Positions 10,036 to 53,965 of a DNA stretch of 64,000 bases are shown here, piece by piece. A program made the position numbers and the translations under genes. The notes beneath the pieces are model-generated. The model ran no database searches, was not told the DNA's origin, and saw only the letters and a list, made by a program, of their open reading frames with translations. Source of the DNA: Candidatus Berkelbacteria bacterium (GTDB lineage Bacteria > Patescibacteriota > UBA1384 > 2-12-FULL-50-11); contig CP066697.1 of assembly GCA_016432625.1 (NCBI GenBank), positions 151,113 to 215,112 of the forward strand. Reading direction: 5' to 3'. Every line of letters begins with the position of its first letter. The first letter of the stretch is position 1.

Positions 10036-11556
10036 CTACGTGGCGCTAAAGAAGCGATACTGCAGCGCTTCGGCGACGTCCCCCGTCTTAATAGCCTCCC
10101 GGTCGTCAAGGTCGGCAATTGTTCGAGCAACTTTGAGCAATTTATGGTAGCTGCGTCCTGTAATTACGAACTTTACTGCCGCCTTTTCTAGCAAATCCTG
10201 CGCCGCTTGGTCGATCTGACAGATTTTAGCGACGTTCGCGCCAGGGATGTTAGCATTCAGACGACCGGCATTACGTTCCAGCTGACGCGTTCTTGCTCGT
10301 CCGACTTTGGTTCGCGATGTTTTTAGTTCCGCTGTATCACGCTTTGGTGATCGCAGATCGCCGAGCGGCACGGCTTCAACTGCCAAAAACAGGTCGATCC
10401 GGTCTAGGATCGGACCACTAATTTTCTTGCGGTATTGGGAGATTTGATAAGGCGAGCATTGACAATCCCTTTGGGCCGAGTTTAACCAGCCACAAGGGCA
10501 GGGGTTCATGGTTGCGACTAGCATGAACGAAGCCGGGTAACGGATAGTCTGGGCGATTCGCGAGACGTGAACTTCACCGTCCTCCAGCGGCTGCCGCAGC
10601 GCCTCAATGACGTTACGAGGGAATTCTGGCAATTCATCCAAAAATAGAACGCCGCGGTGCGATAAGGAAATTTCGCCTGGTCTTGGGTTACTACCGCCAC
10701 CAACGATGGAGATATGGCTGGCGGAGTGATGCGGCGAACGAAACGGTCGCGATAAACTGTCTAGGGCACGATTCGTCTTCAGCTCGCCGGAGACGCTATA
10801 TAGTTTAACAACCTCGATCATTTCGTCCCTGTCCATTGGCGGCAACAGGGCTCTTAAGCCTCGGGCAACTAGAGTTTTGCCGGCGCCAGGCGGCCCCTCG
10901 AGCAGTAAGTTATGGCCGCCGGCAGCAGCGATTAGTGCCGCTCGTTTGGCTTTCTCCTGACCTTGGATTTGCAACCAGTCGTCATCAAGAATCTCCGACT
11001 GCTCCGGCTCCTCATTTGCTGCCTCTTCTTGCGGACTAAATTCACCGTTAATCCAGCCAATAACTTGCGAGAAGTTTTCTAAGCCGACCAAACTTATTCC
11101 CTCGACCAAGCTGCCTTCGCCAAGATTTGCTCTTGGCATAACAACTGCTTCGTAGCCGTGCTTTTTGGCCCATTCTACAAAAATTAACGTGCCGTGAATT
11201 GCTTGTAGTTGACCGTCCAAAGACAGTCCGGCGACAAACAGCGTTTTTGTCAGTCTTGGATTGGTTTTCAGCTGGTTGTCGGCGAGCAGAACGCCGAGCG
11301 CGATCGGTAAGTCAAAATGAACGCCGGATTTTTTGCGCTCCGAAGGCGCTAGGTGCACCGTAATGCGCGATAACGGAAAAGTAAAACCGGAATGTTTCAG
11401 CGCCGAGCGGACTCGCTCGCGTGATTCCTCGACGGCTTTGTCTGCTAATCCGACGACGATAAAGCCTGGCAAGCCGCTCGATACGTCAACTTCAACTTTA
11501 ACTTCTGAGGCGGCAATACCTTCGGCGGCTACAGAGCCAAGCTTCGCCAGAGCCAT
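10036..11556 (-). CDS. comM: YifB/ComM family Mg-chelatase-like AAA+ ATPase
   Basis: N-term MALAKLGSVAAEGIAASEVKVEVDVSSGLPGFIVVGLADKAVEESRERVRSAL, then Walker A GPPGAGKT, then a ChlI-type AAA+ core. Start moved from ORF-track 11622 to the conserved MALAK at 11556. Confidence 0.85.
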   Translation of the reverse strand: MALAKLGSVAAEGIAASEVKVEVDVSSGLPGFIVVGLADKAVEESRERVRSALKHSGFTFPLSRITVHLAPSERKKSGVHFDLPIALGVLLADNQLKTNPRLTKTLFVAGLSLDGQLQAIHGTLIFVEWAKKHGYEAVVMPRANLGEGSLVEGISLVGLENFSQVIGWINGEFSPQEEAANEEPEQSEILDDDWLQIQGQEKAKRAALIAAAGGHNLLLEGPPGAGKTLVARGLRALLPPMDRDEMIEVVKLYSVSGELKTNRALDSLSRPFRSPHHSASHISIVGGGSNPRPGEISLSHRGVLFLDELPEFPRNVIEALRQPLEDGEVHVSRIAQTIRYPASFMLVATMNPCPCGWLNSAQRDCQCSPYQISQYRKKISGPILDRIDLFLAVEAVPLGDLRSPKRDTAELKTSRTKVGRARTRQLERNAGRLNANIPGANVAKICQIDQAAQDLLEKAAVKFVITGRSYHKLLKVARTIADLDDREAIKTGDVAEALQYRFFSAT

Positions 11557-17030: not shown

Positions 17031-18008
17031 ATGACAGATGTTTTAGTTATCGGTTCAGGTATGGCAGGGCTTTCAGCAGCGATTTACGCTGCTCGTTATA
17101 ATTTGGAAACGCTTGTTATTGGTCATGAGTTTGGCGGTGCCACCTCAACTGCTTGGACTATCGAGAACTATCCCGGCTACGTCTCAATCGATGGCTACGA
17201 CCTAATGATGAAGGTTAAAGAGCAGGCAGAAAAGACCGGCGCCAAGATTGTCACGGACCGAGTTATTAAACTCGAAAAGAAGAACGATCACTTCGTGGCT
17301 CAAACTTTTGAGGGCGAAATGTACGAAACTAAAACTATTATTCTTGCCTGTGGCGCGGCGCGAAAAAAAATGGGACTGGCACGTGAAGATGAGTTCGCAC
17401 TCGGAAAAGGCGTCCACTACTGCACTACCTGCGACGGCCCGCTCTACAAAGGCAAAACCGTCGCCGTAATCGGTAGCGGCGATTCGGCGGTCAAGGGTAT
17501 AAAGCTCGCCGTACAGTACGCTGAGAAAATTCACTGGCTAATCCGTGGTGAAGTTATTAAAGCCGAGCCGTTCAATTATGAAAAAGTTAAACACTACTTC
17601 GGCGACAAGATTATTGTTCACTACAACACGTCCATTACCGAGCTTTTGGGCGAGAAACGACTTAACGCCGTCAAGCTTAATACCGGTGAGACCCTAGAGC
17701 TTGATGGCTTGTTCGTTGAGATCGGCGCTCTTCCTGAAGTTGAGCTCGCTCACCACTTAGGCGCGGCGCTCGACGAGTTCGGTTTTATAAAAGTAGACAA
17801 CATGATGGAGACTAACGTTGATGGCATCTACGCTGCCGGCGACGTGACGAACTTTTTCGGCCACTTTAAGCAAGACATTACCGCCGCGGCAATGGGTTCA
17901 GTCGCCGCCACTAGCGCTTTTAAGCATATTCAACACGCCCCAACAGTCCAGGAGGCGAAAGCCACGCCCGCCGAGCAGCCATCAACGGTTAGTAATTTGA
18001 ATAAGTAG
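17031..18008 (+). CDS. trxB: Thioredoxin-disulfide reductase
   Basis: FAD motif VLVIGSGMAGLSAA; redox-active CTTCDG (CxxC); NADPH motif VAVIGSGDSAV. Confidence 0.85.
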   Translation: MTDVLVIGSGMAGLSAAIYAARYNLETLVIGHEFGGATSTAWTIENYPGYVSIDGYDLMMKVKEQAEKTGAKIVTDRVIKLEKKNDHFVAQTFEGEMYETKTIILACGAARKKMGLAREDEFALGKGVHYCTTCDGPLYKGKTVAVIGSGDSAVKGIKLAVQYAEKIHWLIRGEVIKAEPFNYEKVKHYFGDKIIVHYNTSITELLGEKRLNAVKLNTGETLELDGLFVEIGALPEVELAHHLGAALDEFGFIKVDNMMETNVDGIYAAGDVTNFFGHFKQDITAAAMGSVAATSAFKHIQHAPTVQEAKATPAEQPSTVSNLNK

Positions 18009-18117
18009 TGGGTCGGGTGGGGATTTCCTCCGCTGCGCTCCGGTATCCCCACCCTCTTGGCCAAGTGCAAAAACCGCCCATGAGGGCGGTCTCTGCATTG
18101 GTGGGTCGGGTGGGGAT
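18008..18117 (-). repeat. Two partial copies of the tRNA-Lys T-loop-to-3'-end segment (ATCCCCACCCGACCCAC) downstream of tRNA-Lys, each preceded by a related ~50-nt sequence; a rho-independent terminator lies between them at 18071..18096
   Basis: GTGGGTCGGGTGGGGAT occurs on the + strand at 18008-18024, 18101-18117 and 18235-18251 (the last inside the real tRNA). ACCGCCCTCATGGGCGGTTTTTTG reads as a terminator on the - strand. Confidence 0.7.
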
Positions 18118-18235
18118 CTCGCGCCTTCGGCGCTTGAAAGCTCCTTCGCTCACGCTCTGTCGCTATCGAACCCACTTCGTGCGTTCTCTCCCCACCACAA
18201 ACGAAAAAGCTGCCAAATGGCAGCGCTTCCGTTTG

Positions 18236-18307
18236 TGGGTCGGGTGGGGATCGAACCCACGACACACGGCTTAAAAGGCCGTTGTTCTACCACTGAACTA
18301 CCGACCC
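18236..18307 (-). tRNA. tRNA-Lys (anticodon TTT)
   Basis: GGGTCGG-TA-GTTCAGTGGTAGAAC-A-ACGGC-CTTTTAA-GCCGT-GTGTC-GTGGG-TTCGATC-CCCAC-CCGACCC-A. Confidence 0.85.
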
Positions 18308-18722
18308 TGAGCTCTGAGCGAGCGCAGGAGTGGAACCGGAAGGCGCGGAAAATGCTGTTATTTTTCGGCATTTGCAGCGCCGAGGGATTCCTTCAAGTTA
18401 TTTTACGGGAAACATGCCTTTTCCTCAATTAGGAAACGGATCAAGAAACGGTTGAGCTTTTGACAGTAGGTGCTATCATTGTTAGACCTTTGCGCTTCAA
18501 CGACGCAGTGCAAGGGAAATCGGAGGGTATCCAATCGTGTCATTTAATAGAAGCAATCTCGTCGCTCATGCGTCCAACAGGACGACCTTCTCCTTCAAGG
18601 GAGGGAACCGCCGACCGGCACCGAACTGCTCGCCTCTGAGCAATCAGCGTCGGCTGCAGAACATCAACGGCGGCAAACGCCAGCAGGCGAAGAAGTAGAG
18701 GCGAATCCGCTTCACACCAAAG

Positions 18723-39961: not shown

Positions 39962-40044
39962 GCCGGGATGGCGAAATGGTAGACGCACTAGCTTTAGGAG
40001 CTAGCGGGAGCAATCCCATGGAGGTTCAAGTCCTCTTCCCGGCA
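39962..40044 (+). tRNA. tRNA-Leu (anticodon TAG)
   Basis: Acceptor GCCGGGA/TCCCGGC, anticodon arm CTAGC-TTTAGGA-GCTAG, long variable arm, T-arm GGAGG-TTCAAGT-CCTCT, discriminator A. Confidence 0.85.
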
Positions 40045-40141
40045 CTGAACCCAAGGTTCACTACGAACCGCCGAAGGCGGTGAAGTGCCAAGCACGTTAG
40101 TGCGAGCGGTCCTCTCCCAGGCACGGACGAGTTAGGTTAGA

Positions 40142-41173
40142 ATGTGCAAAATGCCTCTGACGGTTCTCGAGGAAAGAATATTAGATTCGATTATTGTTGC
40201 CTCAGACAACGACCCCGCAAAGCCGGAGTTTCCTGCCGATGATCCGAAGTTTCCAGCAACGCCGACATACAAAATCGAAATCCCAGGTTTTAGTAATGTT
40301 TGGCTTAAAGATGAGTCGCATAACCCAACTGGCACCCACAAAGACCGGATGGCCTGGGAGATCATCGTCACCTACCGTGACTTTTTAGTAGCAAAAGAGA
40401 GCGGCCAAGTCTCCGGCGGACTGCCGACGCTGTCCATTATCTCCTCGGGTGGAGCAGCAGTTTCTATCCAGACCCAGTTACGTAAATATAAACTACCGAA
40501 CCTCAAGGTCTTAGCCGACAAGACGACATCAAAAACCATACTGGCTTTTCTGCACCATTTAGGATGCGAACTTTATCTAACCGATTTATCCAGGCGGCCA
40601 TTTAGTACTAGGGAGATTCTGAAGCTAACGAACAATCCTAGCGGTTTCGATATTACTTCAAGCGAAGCGCTTGATCCGACAACAAGATTTTATGACTGGT
40701 TAAGTTATGAGGTTCTTAATAATTCACCGGAATATTGCTTTATCCCTTTCGGGACTGGGAATCTTTACGAGAACATACTCAATATAAATAAGCGGGAGGC
40801 GACGGCCGACACACACGATCCGCGTTTCAAAGGCGATGTTCGGATTTTGCGACAGTGCAACTTTTTTGGCGCTACATCAAACAACCGCAATACCAAAGCC
40901 GACAAGCTATATTCGCCGCACTTGCCGTTCGTACACTACGACGAGCAGTGGATCCGGTTTTATCGCCAAGCCGGTTACTGCGGTCCCGATTCTGATGTCT
41001 TTCCGGTGGAGGAGAAGTACTTCGATGAAGCAATGCAACTAGCTGATGCTAATAACGTGAGGTGTGAGTACTCAGGGATCGCTGGACTAGCGCTAATGTT
41101 GCAGATGAAAGACTCCCTGCCGCGTGACAAGAAAATGTTGATAGTAAATACCGGTAAATCCGTCTCCTCATAG
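40142..41173 (+). CDS. Divergent PLP-dependent enzyme of the tryptophan-synthase-beta/threonine-synthase-like (PALP, fold type II) family
   Basis: KDESHNPTGTHKDR matches the PALP PLP-lysine motif (K-x-E-x-x-NPTGS-x-KDR). A later Gly-rich loop FIPFGTGNLYE is present. Otherwise low similarity to characterised members. Confidence 0.55.
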   Translation: MCKMPLTVLEERILDSIIVASDNDPAKPEFPADDPKFPATPTYKIEIPGFSNVWLKDESHNPTGTHKDRMAWEIIVTYRDFLVAKESGQVSGGLPTLSIISSGGAAVSIQTQLRKYKLPNLKVLADKTTSKTILAFLHHLGCELYLTDLSRRPFSTREILKLTNNPSGFDITSSEALDPTTRFYDWLSYEVLNNSPEYCFIPFGTGNLYENILNINKREATADTHDPRFKGDVRILRQCNFFGATSNNRNTKADKLYSPHLPFVHYDEQWIRFYRQAGYCGPDSDVFPVEEKYFDEAMQLADANNVRCEYSGIAGLALMLQMKDSLPRDKKMLIVNTGKSVSS

Positions 41174-48915: not shown

Positions 48916-49053
48916 GCGGTCCCAACGGGAAGTCTCGCAGCTGAGCTGCTCGGAAAGCTCCTACGCTAACGCTCCGTCGCTACCGAACCCGCGGGTTCGA
49001 CACCGCGAGCAGGTAGTAAACACGGCCCGGAAATTCCGCGCCGTGTTCCCTAG
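48916..49053 (-). repeat. Partial tRNA-Glu T-arm/3'-end copy (CGGGTTCG...ACTTCCCGTTGGGACCGC) with a ~50-nt insert in the T-loop, lying downstream of the real tRNA-Glu
   Basis: GCGGTCCCAACGGGA occurs on the + strand at 48916-48930 and 49053-49067. The intervening sequence is homologous to the one in the tRNA-Lys locus. Confidence 0.65.
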
Positions 49054-49127
49054 CGGTCCCAACGGGAGTCGAACCCGTGATTTCCGGGATGAAAACCCGG
49101 CGTCCTAGGCCACTAGACGATGGGACC
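49054..49127 (-). tRNA. tRNA-Glu (anticodon TTC)
   Basis: GGTCCCA-TC-GTCTAGTGGCCTAGGAC-G-CCGGG-TTTTCAT-CCCGG-AAATC-ACGGG-TTCGACT-CCCGT-TGGGACC-G. Confidence 0.85.
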
Positions 49128-53578: not shown

Positions 53579-53965
53579 TGGTGGACCTGCCGGGAGTTGA
53601 ACCCGGGTCCGAGAACCTACGAACGAAGACGTCTACAAGCGTAGAAAGTTTAAAGTCTTAGCAGCTGGGCTTGAGAGCTTTCAAAAAACCCGACTGAGCA
53701 ACATCTTATTCTGAGGAGTTGTACCGATGTGCGCACAATCCCGGTTCTACTTTTTGACGCCTCGTTACCTTAGTAGAAGTCAGGTGACGAAACGGCATTG
53801 GCCGTTAGGCTAATGCTGTTGCAAAAGAAGGAGTCGCGAACAAGTTCGCAACACGAGCTTTTGCAGTTTCAAATGCGTTTGCACGTATTTGTTTTGCGCT
53901 CTAAGGCAGGCGCGTCCGCTTGCAGTCCTCGCTGTAAACGTTCCCGTCGAAGCCAGTACAGGCCC
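53579..53965 (-). ncRNA. ssrA: tmRNA (ssrA)
   Basis: The - strand 5' end is GGGCCTGTACTGGCTTCGACGGG (tRNA-Ala-like acceptor with G3·U70 wobble plus the conserved UUCGACGGG box). The 3' end is GGACCCGGGTTCAACTCCCGGCAGGTCCACCA (T-arm plus acceptor plus encoded CCA). Internal reading frame ...GCA ACA GCA TTA GCC TAA (tag ending ATALA*). Confidence 0.8.

Follow-up and report, generated by a model that had tools for sequence, protein, structure and literature searches.

The closest described counterpart of the element reported here is RtT, to our knowledge an orphan Escherichia coli RNA since 1991 that is known from enterobacterial transfer RNA (tRNA)-Tyr operons only. Bosl and Kersten reportedly proposed in 1991 that this RNA modulates the stringent response, and are said to have described it with a tRNA-like 3' boundary. 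A second system of relevance, 3'ETS-leuZ, is a tRNA 3' external transcribed spacer RNA that, reportedly after work by Lalaouna et al. in 2015, acts by short base-pairing with small RNAs (sRNAs); its likeness to the RNA proposed below lies in being a functional RNA freed from a tRNA trailer by tRNA processing, and we know of no tRNA-derived T-arm or 3'-end copies in it. The stringent-response proposal for RtT is echoed in 10.1101/2024.07.17.603846, and the E. coli rrn operons, as outlined in PMC8144298, yield sRNAs (rrA/rrB/rrF) between dual terminators via read-through. From another field altogether, integration is classically recognised by direct repeats of a tRNA 3' end whose start lies in the T-loop (PMC9897764; Reiter 1989 and Williams 2002, as cited there). 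Here we describe, in a 64-kb stretch of DNA from a Candidatus Berkelbacteria genome (hereafter the window), repeat units that lie behind tRNA-Lys, tRNA-Glu and tRNA-Leu genes and copy parts of these tRNAs. We favour, with a probability of about 45%, the reading that such units would encode a selected, structured tRNA-trailer RNA analogous to RtT, with its repeat copies kept identical by recombination.

The tRNA-Lys(UUU) gene of the window lies on the minus strand at 18235-18307 (ARAGORN; Rfam tRNA model, 75.7 bits), and its 3' end reads ACCCA-CAA, so that CCA is not encoded. Its last 17 nucleotides (nt), ATCCCCACCCGACCCAC, which extend from A58 of the T-loop through one base beyond the discriminator, are termed repeat R0 (18235-18251). 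The initial annotation, made from the sequence alone, had noticed that this tRNA end recurs twice downstream on the same strand, and the window indeed holds three exact copies of it, all on the minus strand (18235-18251, 18101-18117 and 18008-18024, with 134 and 93 nt between repeats), a number reached in 0 of 100 dinucleotide shuffles. Read on the tRNA-sense strand, the locus consists of tRNA-Lys with R0, a first hairpin (T1), a long unit (unit A), R1 followed by CA, a second hairpin (T2), a short hairpin unit and R2. T1, directly 3' of tRNA-Lys, is an extended hairpin (18195-18238, minus strand; 21-nt arms, 86%) with the terminator-like core GCTGCC-ATTT-GGCAGC followed by TTTTTCGTTT, whereas T2 (18066-18097, minus strand), located by an inverted-repeat search and from the sequence, consists of ACCGCCC-TCAT-GGGCGGT followed by TTTTTGC, with a T run on the tRNA-sense strand only. 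At R1 (18099-18117, minus strand) the discriminator precedes CCA; none of the three tRNA genes of the window examined for this (Lys, Glu and Leu-UAG) has an encoded CCA after it, but the R1 copy does.

The long unit is built largely from pieces of the tRNA that precedes it. Its parts are, in this order, an inverted T-arm copy, a hairpin (H1), a purine-rich insert and R1. First, the whole T-arm of tRNA-Lys is present as an inverted copy at 18177-18196 (minus strand), where GGTGGGGAGAGAACGCACGA agrees with the reverse complement GGTGGGGATCGAACCCACGA at 17 of 20 positions (20 nt, 85%), and the first 8 nt of this copy can pair with R1 to form an outer stem (8/8 in the predicted fold and pair table). 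Second, H1 is predicted, from the same fold and pair table, as GAACGCAC-GAA-GTGGGTTC (18168-18186, minus strand), and its 3' strand equals the 5' strand of the T-stem plus T54-C56. Third, the T-arm 5' half is copied directly as GTGGGTTCGAT (18165-18175, minus strand), which comprises the T-stem 5' strand and the T-loop up to A58/T59. Fourth, the insert (18118-18164, minus strand; 47 nt, 68% purine) ends in the hairpin H3, GCGCC-GAA-GGCGC (18121-18133), and then GAG. The nearer copy, with GTGGGTTCGAT, a 47-nt insert and ATCCCCACCCGACCCAC, is thus a T-arm interrupted in its loop, as had been claimed, although the interruption measures 47-48 nt and not about 50, and the insertion point is best placed between G57/A58 and T59. 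The farther copy, which had been taken for another partial T-arm, is a plain hairpin followed by the acceptor strand: the short unit (18008-18054, minus strand; fold z=-2.65) consists of GGGTGGGGAT (18045-18054), a 20-nt purine-rich loop (18025-18044) and R2 (18008-18024), that is, a hairpin of GGGTGGGGAT with ATCCCCACCC and then the acceptor strand. R2 shares 1 nt with the stop codon of a TrxB-like gene that runs convergently (17031-18008, plus strand).

The comparison with E. coli was made at the tyrT-tyrV locus (NC_000913, 1285800-1288000), whose 178-bp repeats (gene rttR) are Rfam family RF00391, with a gathering threshold of 45 bits; the layout of RtT used here is our own reading of that sequence and not a published definition. 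The RtT model aligns over its full length (1-130) to 18099-18211 of the minus strand at 19.2 bits (E=0.31), which is below threshold, and among Rfam families this is the only full-length sub-threshold lead and the only notable non-tRNA lead on the Lys unit of the window; no Rfam family reaches its threshold on the units. An RtT unit starts with GGGGAAGGATGAGAAGCTTCGA, an inverted T-arm of tRNA-Tyr (22 nt, 86%, at tyrV/RtT), continues with the hairpin GAAGCTT-CGACC-AAGGTTC, GA-CT and a purine-rich insert of 68 nt that ends in AGCGC-GCA-GCGCT and GAG-TA, and closes with AATCCTTCCCCCACCACCA, the 3' end of tRNA-Tyr from A58; its outer stem is paired at 10/10 positions.

The Berkelbacteria units agree with this layout in several respects. 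First, the tRNA is followed on its own strand by one unit or by several in tandem, each of which ends in the tRNA's own 3'-terminal 17-19 nt (in the window both Lys units, the Glu unit and, with two mismatches, the Leu unit; also six relatives). Second, an inverted T-arm copy (20-22 nt, 80-86%) is followed by a hairpin with GGTTC, a T-loop insert and an outer stem that involves the T-stem 3' strand, and the 3' strand of the hairpin is the T-stem 5' strand plus TTC. Third, the purine-rich insert enters at the same T-loop position and ends in a GC hairpin and GAG. Fourth, a TCGAA-to-GAGAA change of the inverted T-loop is common to E. coli, the window and two of its relatives (L005 and L007). Fifth, copy number varies, and in E. 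coli it does so widely, since 4741 of 5426 complete genomes carry an RtT unit, at 1-14 places each with a median of 3, and 18 of the places are on plasmids; this variation shows that units are gained and lost between their repeated ends. The systems differ in that RtT belongs to enterobacteria and tRNA-Tyr, whereas the present units belong to Patescibacteria, or candidate phyla radiation (CPR), and to tRNA-Lys, tRNA-Glu and tRNA-Leu; in insert length (68 nt in E. coli versus 48-49 nt here); in the terminator hairpin that separates tRNA and unit in most long Lys units and is missing in E. coli; in CCA, which is mostly not encoded here; and in the tpr open reading frame (ORF) of E. coli, which has no counterpart here. 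The units are best classed as a new form of the known but obscure RtT-type tRNA-trailer repeats, here in a CPR bacterium and on Lys, Glu and Leu tRNAs.

The TrxB-like protein encoded beside tRNA-Lys is identical to one named Candidatus Berkelbacteria (Patescibacteria/CPR). Syntenic loci were fetched via TrxB homologues, which gave nine distinct loci counting the window. A unit stands behind tRNA-Lys in seven of these nine Berkelbacteria loci with TrxB beside tRNA-Lys: a long one in the window, L005, L006, L007 (equal to L008), L009 and L019, and a short one in L020/L021. The window has two units, most relatives have one, and L023 and L022 have none. The general long unit comprises an inverted T-arm, a direct T-arm 5' half that pairs with the inverted copy to give H1, an insert of 48-49 nt, and a copy of tRNA positions 58-74, namely the T-loop end, the T-stem 3' strand, the acceptor 3' strand, the discriminator and one further base. 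The insert is purine-rich, carries one or two GC hairpins and enters the T-loop at about position 58, and the T1 hairpin separates tRNA and unit in most long Lys units. Short units retain only a hairpin that has the T-stem 3' strand as its 3' strand, followed by the acceptor strand. Units are co-stranded with their tRNA; in L007, where the tRNA block is inverted relative to TrxB, the unit is still downstream of the tRNA and co-oriented with it. The inverted T-arm copy has decayed in L007, L009 and L019, and spans 14 nt at 86% in L006.

The TrxB tree groups (L019,(window,L005)) with L006 in one clade and (L021,(L023,L009)) with L007 in another, with L022 as the outgroup. Insert type 1 (AGCGAC...) is found in the window, in L005 and in the 5' half of the L019 insert, type 2 (GCGAGCAAGTGAAGCTTGCGAGAAGTGGAGCC...) in L007 and L009, and L006 has a third type. 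As the insert types follow the TrxB tree, inheritance is roughly vertical with divergence, with one loss (L023) and one reduction (L021). The unit ends behave differently. In all eight Lys-linked units the 3' end is an exact copy of the local tRNA's T-stem and acceptor 3' strand, and four acceptor variants occur among them (CCCGACCCA, CCTGACCCA, CTCGGCTCA and CTCGACCCA); type 1 units end in CCCGACCCA or CTCGGCTCA, and type 2 units in CCTGACCCA or CTCGGCTCA. Because both insert types carry differing acceptor ends, the unit end follows the tRNA and not the insert lineage.

Several observations speak for constraint on the unit itself. First, the window and L005 share 74% of nucleotides in the TrxB gene but agree at 126 of 134 positions (94%) in T1 plus the unit. 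Second, insert length, measured between A58 of the 5' half and A58 of the 3' copy, stays at 48-49 nt in 8/8 long units despite at least three sequence types, and the purine content of the insert on the tRNA-sense strand is 58-69% in the seven distinct long-unit inserts measured. Third, L007 and L009 differ mostly in hairpin stems and loops, and yet both insert hairpin stems remain fully paired, with compensatory changes from GCAAG/CTTGC to GCAAA/TTTGC and from GCCGC/GCGGC to GTCGC/GCGAC, while single-stranded GCGAGAAGTGGAG and also GGGTTCGACTGCGAG are unchanged. Fourth, H1 covaries where the T-stem reading is lost, for example as GTTGC/GCAAC in L006 and L019; the pairing of the unit T-stem itself falls to 2-4 of 5 pairs in L006, L009, L019, the Leu unit and E. 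coli. These pairs were tabulated by hand in a script, given that MAFFT columns misalign hairpins of differing length and register. The feature is real and more than decay: the units found in relatives and the covariation of their stems, on which the initial annotation had let its claim stand or fall, both came out in its favour.

The layout of the locus, [tRNA 3' half]-T1-[inverted T-arm]-[direct T-arm], could also have been produced at the DNA level, by fold-back or template-switch replication errors at terminator and T-arm palindromes, which copied the tRNA 3' half first in inverted and later in direct orientation, with slippage between the 17-nt repeats homogenising the copies and with no function of the RNA. 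In line with this, the arms around T1 of L006 reach 31 nt at 81%, into the acceptor strand; the Glu-linked unit contains a perfect loop-less palindrome, CGAACCCG joined directly to CGGGTTCG, which is typical of DNA inverted duplication and not of an RNA hairpin; units are gained and lost (two in the window, one in most relatives, none in L023/L022, and 1-14 in E. coli); and a recurrent mutational route would give the same layout in E. coli and in CPR bacteria without homology. We nevertheless regard such a by-product as unlikely, as it leaves unexplained the purine-rich insert of 48-49 nt across sequence types, the 94% identity next to an adjacent gene at 74%, the invariant single-stranded motif of L007 and L009, and the consistent strand bias and co-orientation with the tRNA.

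The repeats themselves also called to mind, in the initial annotation, scars of tRNA-targeting integrative elements. They could be read as attL/attR duplications of a tRNA 3' end or, in a variant of this idea, as a tiny non-autonomous unit mobilised in trans by a tRNA-targeting integrase. The units do share with such scars the direct repeats of the tRNA 3' end from the T-loop (the signature of PMC9897764) and a presence that varies among relatives, and R1 with its CA and the matching T2 of the window and L007 looks like an original tRNA end displaced by an inserted R0, T1 and unit. This explanation fits poorly, however, and we hold it to be quite improbable. Only 93-134 nt lie between the repeats, and the window, L005, L006, L007 and L009 show no integrase, recombinase or phage genes over distances of up to 10 kb on either side of the TrxB anchor gene, to which tRNA-Lys is adjacent; the Pfam lists of the called neighbouring genes hold ABC transporter, CofD, TrxB, DnaJ, YbjQ and Top1B, with no integrase or transposase family. 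The region 18098-18234 had no match in 50,697 phage records, plasmids not being part of that search, and the E. coli RtT unit matched in the same collection only a Salmonella contig included there. Furthermore, the core of an attR should be uninterrupted, whereas here the T-arm 5' half and the 3' copy stand 47-49 nt apart in all long units and are accompanied by an inverted T-arm copy; and insert types follow the host tree, with a unit that is inherited roughly vertically and conserved above coding DNA.

Units are not confined to tRNA-Lys. Behind tRNA-Glu (49053-49127, minus strand; ARAGORN), the Glu-linked unit (48916-49052, minus strand) comprises a hairpin (49014-49052), which leads to an inverted T-arm copy (48985-49004; 20 nt, 80%), the loop-less palindrome noted above, a 48-nt insert (48934-48981) and the 3' copy ACTTCCCGTTGGGACCGC (48916-48933). 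Two occurrences of the 29-nt insert core AGCGACRGAGCGTKAGCGWAGGAGCTTTC were found, at 18136-18164 and 48953-48981 of the minus strand of the window, where chance would give none, and the second occurrence is framed by Glu-specific T-arm pieces. The cores of the Lys and Glu units are of one insert type, identical at 26 of 29 positions with a common GCGAG end, and nhmmer aligns the Lys unit with the Glu unit at E=1e-5, which bears out the homology of the two inserts that had been noted beforehand. So does H3, which reads GCGCC-GAA-GGCGC in the Lys unit and GCAGC-TCA-GCTGC in the Glu unit, and holds the compensatory difference previously claimed, one pair changed from G:C to A:T, together with a loop change. 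The third unit (40046-40124, plus strand) is directly 3' of tRNA-Leu(UAG) (39962-40045, plus strand), with no terminator between them, and stops 18 nt short of an ORF at 40142. It consists of the hairpin TGAACC-CAA-GGTTCA, a 48-nt insert of another type with hairpins CCGCC-GAA-GGCGG and GCAC-GTTA-GTGC, GAG, and then GTCCTCTCCCAGGCAC, a 3' copy with two mismatches to the tRNA-Leu 3' end. A check for 3'-end repeats found no unit at the remaining six tRNAs and the transfer-messenger RNA (tmRNA) gene of the window, and neither fuzzy motif searches nor nhmmer gave further copies in the 64 kb. The tmRNA gene (53579-53965, minus strand), with no unit or 3'-end repeat behind it, encodes a long tag peptide of 25 residues, ANAFETAKARVANLFATPSFATALA. 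The inverted T-arm copy, the Leu unit, the resemblance to E. coli RtT and the units of the relatives all go beyond what had been annotated initially.

One insert type within both Lys-specific and Glu-specific frames of a single genome is what would be expected of a small mobile cassette that inserts into the T-loops of tRNA-derived hairpins, between 57/58 and 59, with the tRNA-specific flanks as its target, and a selfish element of this kind had been put forward. Orthologous Lys units that carry different insert types, an insertion point that all units share with E. coli RtT, and an L009 tRNA-Glu orthologue without a unit also agree with it. What could not be recognised are the attributes of an element: terminal inverted repeats are absent, an ambiguous A/AT is all that could count as a target-site duplication, and the neighbourhood holds no gene for a transposase, reverse transcriptase or HUH protein. 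Besides, a functional tRNA is never hit, the insert never occurs outside tRNA-linked frames in the window, the inverted T-arm copy has no explanation, and the two exact matches of the core in representative genomes of 185,579 species lie apart from any tRNA and look unrelated. On balance we give such a cassette little chance of being correct.

The latter matches came from a scan with AGCGACNGAGCGTNAGCGNAGGAGC (representative genomes of the 185,579 species, without the source genome), and belong to assembled genomes of Acidobacteriota and Acidimicrobiia, neither of them near a tRNA. In one of these loci (L002, 7325-7500) a 25-nt insert core lies in the loop of the hairpin GCCGGGGGC/GCCCCCGG inside a larger palindromic repeat, and in the other (L003, 940-1400) within a tandem repeat of about 60 nt; both are probably unrelated GAGCG-rich repeats. 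A metagenome scan for GGGTTCGA, 35-65 nt of any sequence and ATCCCCACYYGRCYCA gave one real locus, which is L008, and five chance matches inside coding DNA. Four further identities for the units were considered and rejected: a dispersed repeat family, as no further copies exist in the 64-kb window; a tRNA or tRNA pseudogene (RF00005), as there is no cloverleaf, ARAGORN and Rfam call the intact genes only, and an inverted T-arm, not an anticodon arm, lies upstream of the T-arm half; a protein-coding region, as only spurious overlapping ORFs are present and the insert types share no conserved start codon or frame; and a functional T-arm made of the 5' half and the 3' copy, which was discarded as the conserved fold given that outer T-stem pairs decay while H1 covaries.

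Among the interpretations initially offered, which are partly supported as a whole, a minihelix-like processing or regulatory RNA is the closest to the evidence of a conserved, structured and strand-biased unit that accompanies its tRNA in seven related genomes. The favoured reading, a trailer RNA analogous to RtT, develops this option into the following mechanism, which is only moderately supported, with eight long units available. RNA polymerase would sometimes read through T1 and, in the window and L007, would then stop at the second, sense-only terminator T2. Such a T2 after the unit makes little sense unless transcription crosses the unit, which points to read-through of T1; the L007 hairpin matches T2, with CCAAT...GGGCGGTTTTTGC common to both when compared by eye. 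Processing of the tRNA 3' end would free the trailer as a compact RNA, whose tRNA-derived segments would pair mutually, in H1 and the outer stem, and so present the purine-rich insert, while the terminal tRNA-end copy would provide a tRNA-like 3' boundary, by analogy with the E. coli RtT RNA. The 17-nt repeated ends, finally, would act as recombination points at which units are gained and lost and each copy is kept identical to the tRNA end. The window has two units against one in its relatives, and copy number varies in E. coli. Unequal recombination or slippage can account for the R copies being identical to the tRNA end, and no function that requires identity need be assumed. The rrn sRNAs, as far as PMC8144298 outlines them, differ from the proposed RNA in not being built from pieces of the upstream RNA, and several of the present units are without T2 or T1.

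Read-through of T1 would also permit a more radical outcome, in which the transcript folds into an expanded, class-II-like giant tRNA-Lys. The 5' acceptor strand would pair with the 3' copy of the unit, the tRNA's own T-arm, T1 and the inverted copy would become a long variable arm, and the unit would contribute a further T-arm that carries a 48-nt domain where insertion is permissive, at 58/59. Minimum-energy folding predicts this shape for the window and L005, with the D and anticodon arms intact (-131 kcal/mol, z=-8.5; 18062-18307, minus strand of the window); it would give a reason for the tracking of the acceptor and for the CCA after R1 in the window and L007, and both expansions are at sites where tRNA structure is established to tolerate insertions. 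We consider it very improbable all the same. The unit T-stem decays to 2-4 of 5 pairs in the units already listed while the competing H1 covaries, the inverted copy is decayed in L007, L009 and L019, it is thermodynamically trivial that the 5' strand can pair with the far copy, since both copies are identical, and co-transcriptional folding and termination at T1 argue against it.

The trailer-RNA reading has its own difficulties. First, T1 resembles a competent terminator, and little transcript may reach the unit; in addition, the folding energies of sense and antisense strands differ little for most units. Second, the covariation rests on eight long units, too few for statistical tests, and templated (quasipalindrome) correction of DNA palindromes can also give compensatory changes without selection at the RNA level. 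Third, in L023, the sister of L009, and in L022, tRNA-Lys adjoins TrxB with neither T1 nor unit, and the tRNA-Glu of the L009 genome, where gene order is rearranged, lacks a unit; judging by these three cases, the unit is dispensable. Fourth, the Lys-type insert within a Glu-specific frame is left unexplained by a trailer RNA. Fifth, at E<=10 the RtT model leaves the tRNA-Glu, L007 and L006 units unmatched; because the model misses these, the units are filed as RtT-like in architecture and not as members of the family, and the common layout could be convergent rather than homologous.

Upstream of tRNA-Lys, the window has a promoter-like site, TTGAGG-17-TAAAAT (18400-18428, minus strand), about 90 nt 5' of the gene, whereas in relatives a TAAAAT lies about 20-30 nt upstream of tRNA-Lys instead. 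An additional leader of about 90 nt (18308-18390, minus strand) thus separates the promoter-like site from tRNA-Lys in the window genome only, as judged from the upstream sequences of the relatives. Two of its segments are complementary to the downstream units, 18320-18335 to the unit loop at 18025-18040 and 18371-18386 to the insert at 18124-18139 (each 16 nt, 81%). Leader and trailer of one pre-tRNA-Lys could thus pair or, alternatively, the tRNA-Lys gene could simply be flanked by inverted repeats. Two observations were made in the relatives. L006 has some 280 nt of additional DNA (10963-11240), on which an ORF of 54 amino acids is called, between the 3' copy of the unit and the TrxB stop codon, which the copy abuts in most relatives. 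In L022 (7738-7990), tRNA-Glu(CUC) and tRNA-Asp encode CCA, whereas tRNA-Lys and tRNA-Glu(UUC) do not.

An RtT-like construction thus occurs in a CPR bacterium on three further tRNAs, tracks the acceptor sequence and is conserved above coding DNA. This suggests either that tRNA-templated trailer RNAs form a widespread class that has gone unrecognised, or that such structures arise repeatedly at tRNA genes by a mutational route, and it provides a search rule for more such units that is based on architecture and not on sequence. For annotators there is a note of caution, as repeats of a tRNA 3' end are not always integration scars. Were the expanded tRNA true, the Berkelbacteria units and E. coli RtT would allow an ordinary tRNA gene to yield alternative RNAs of tRNA shape.

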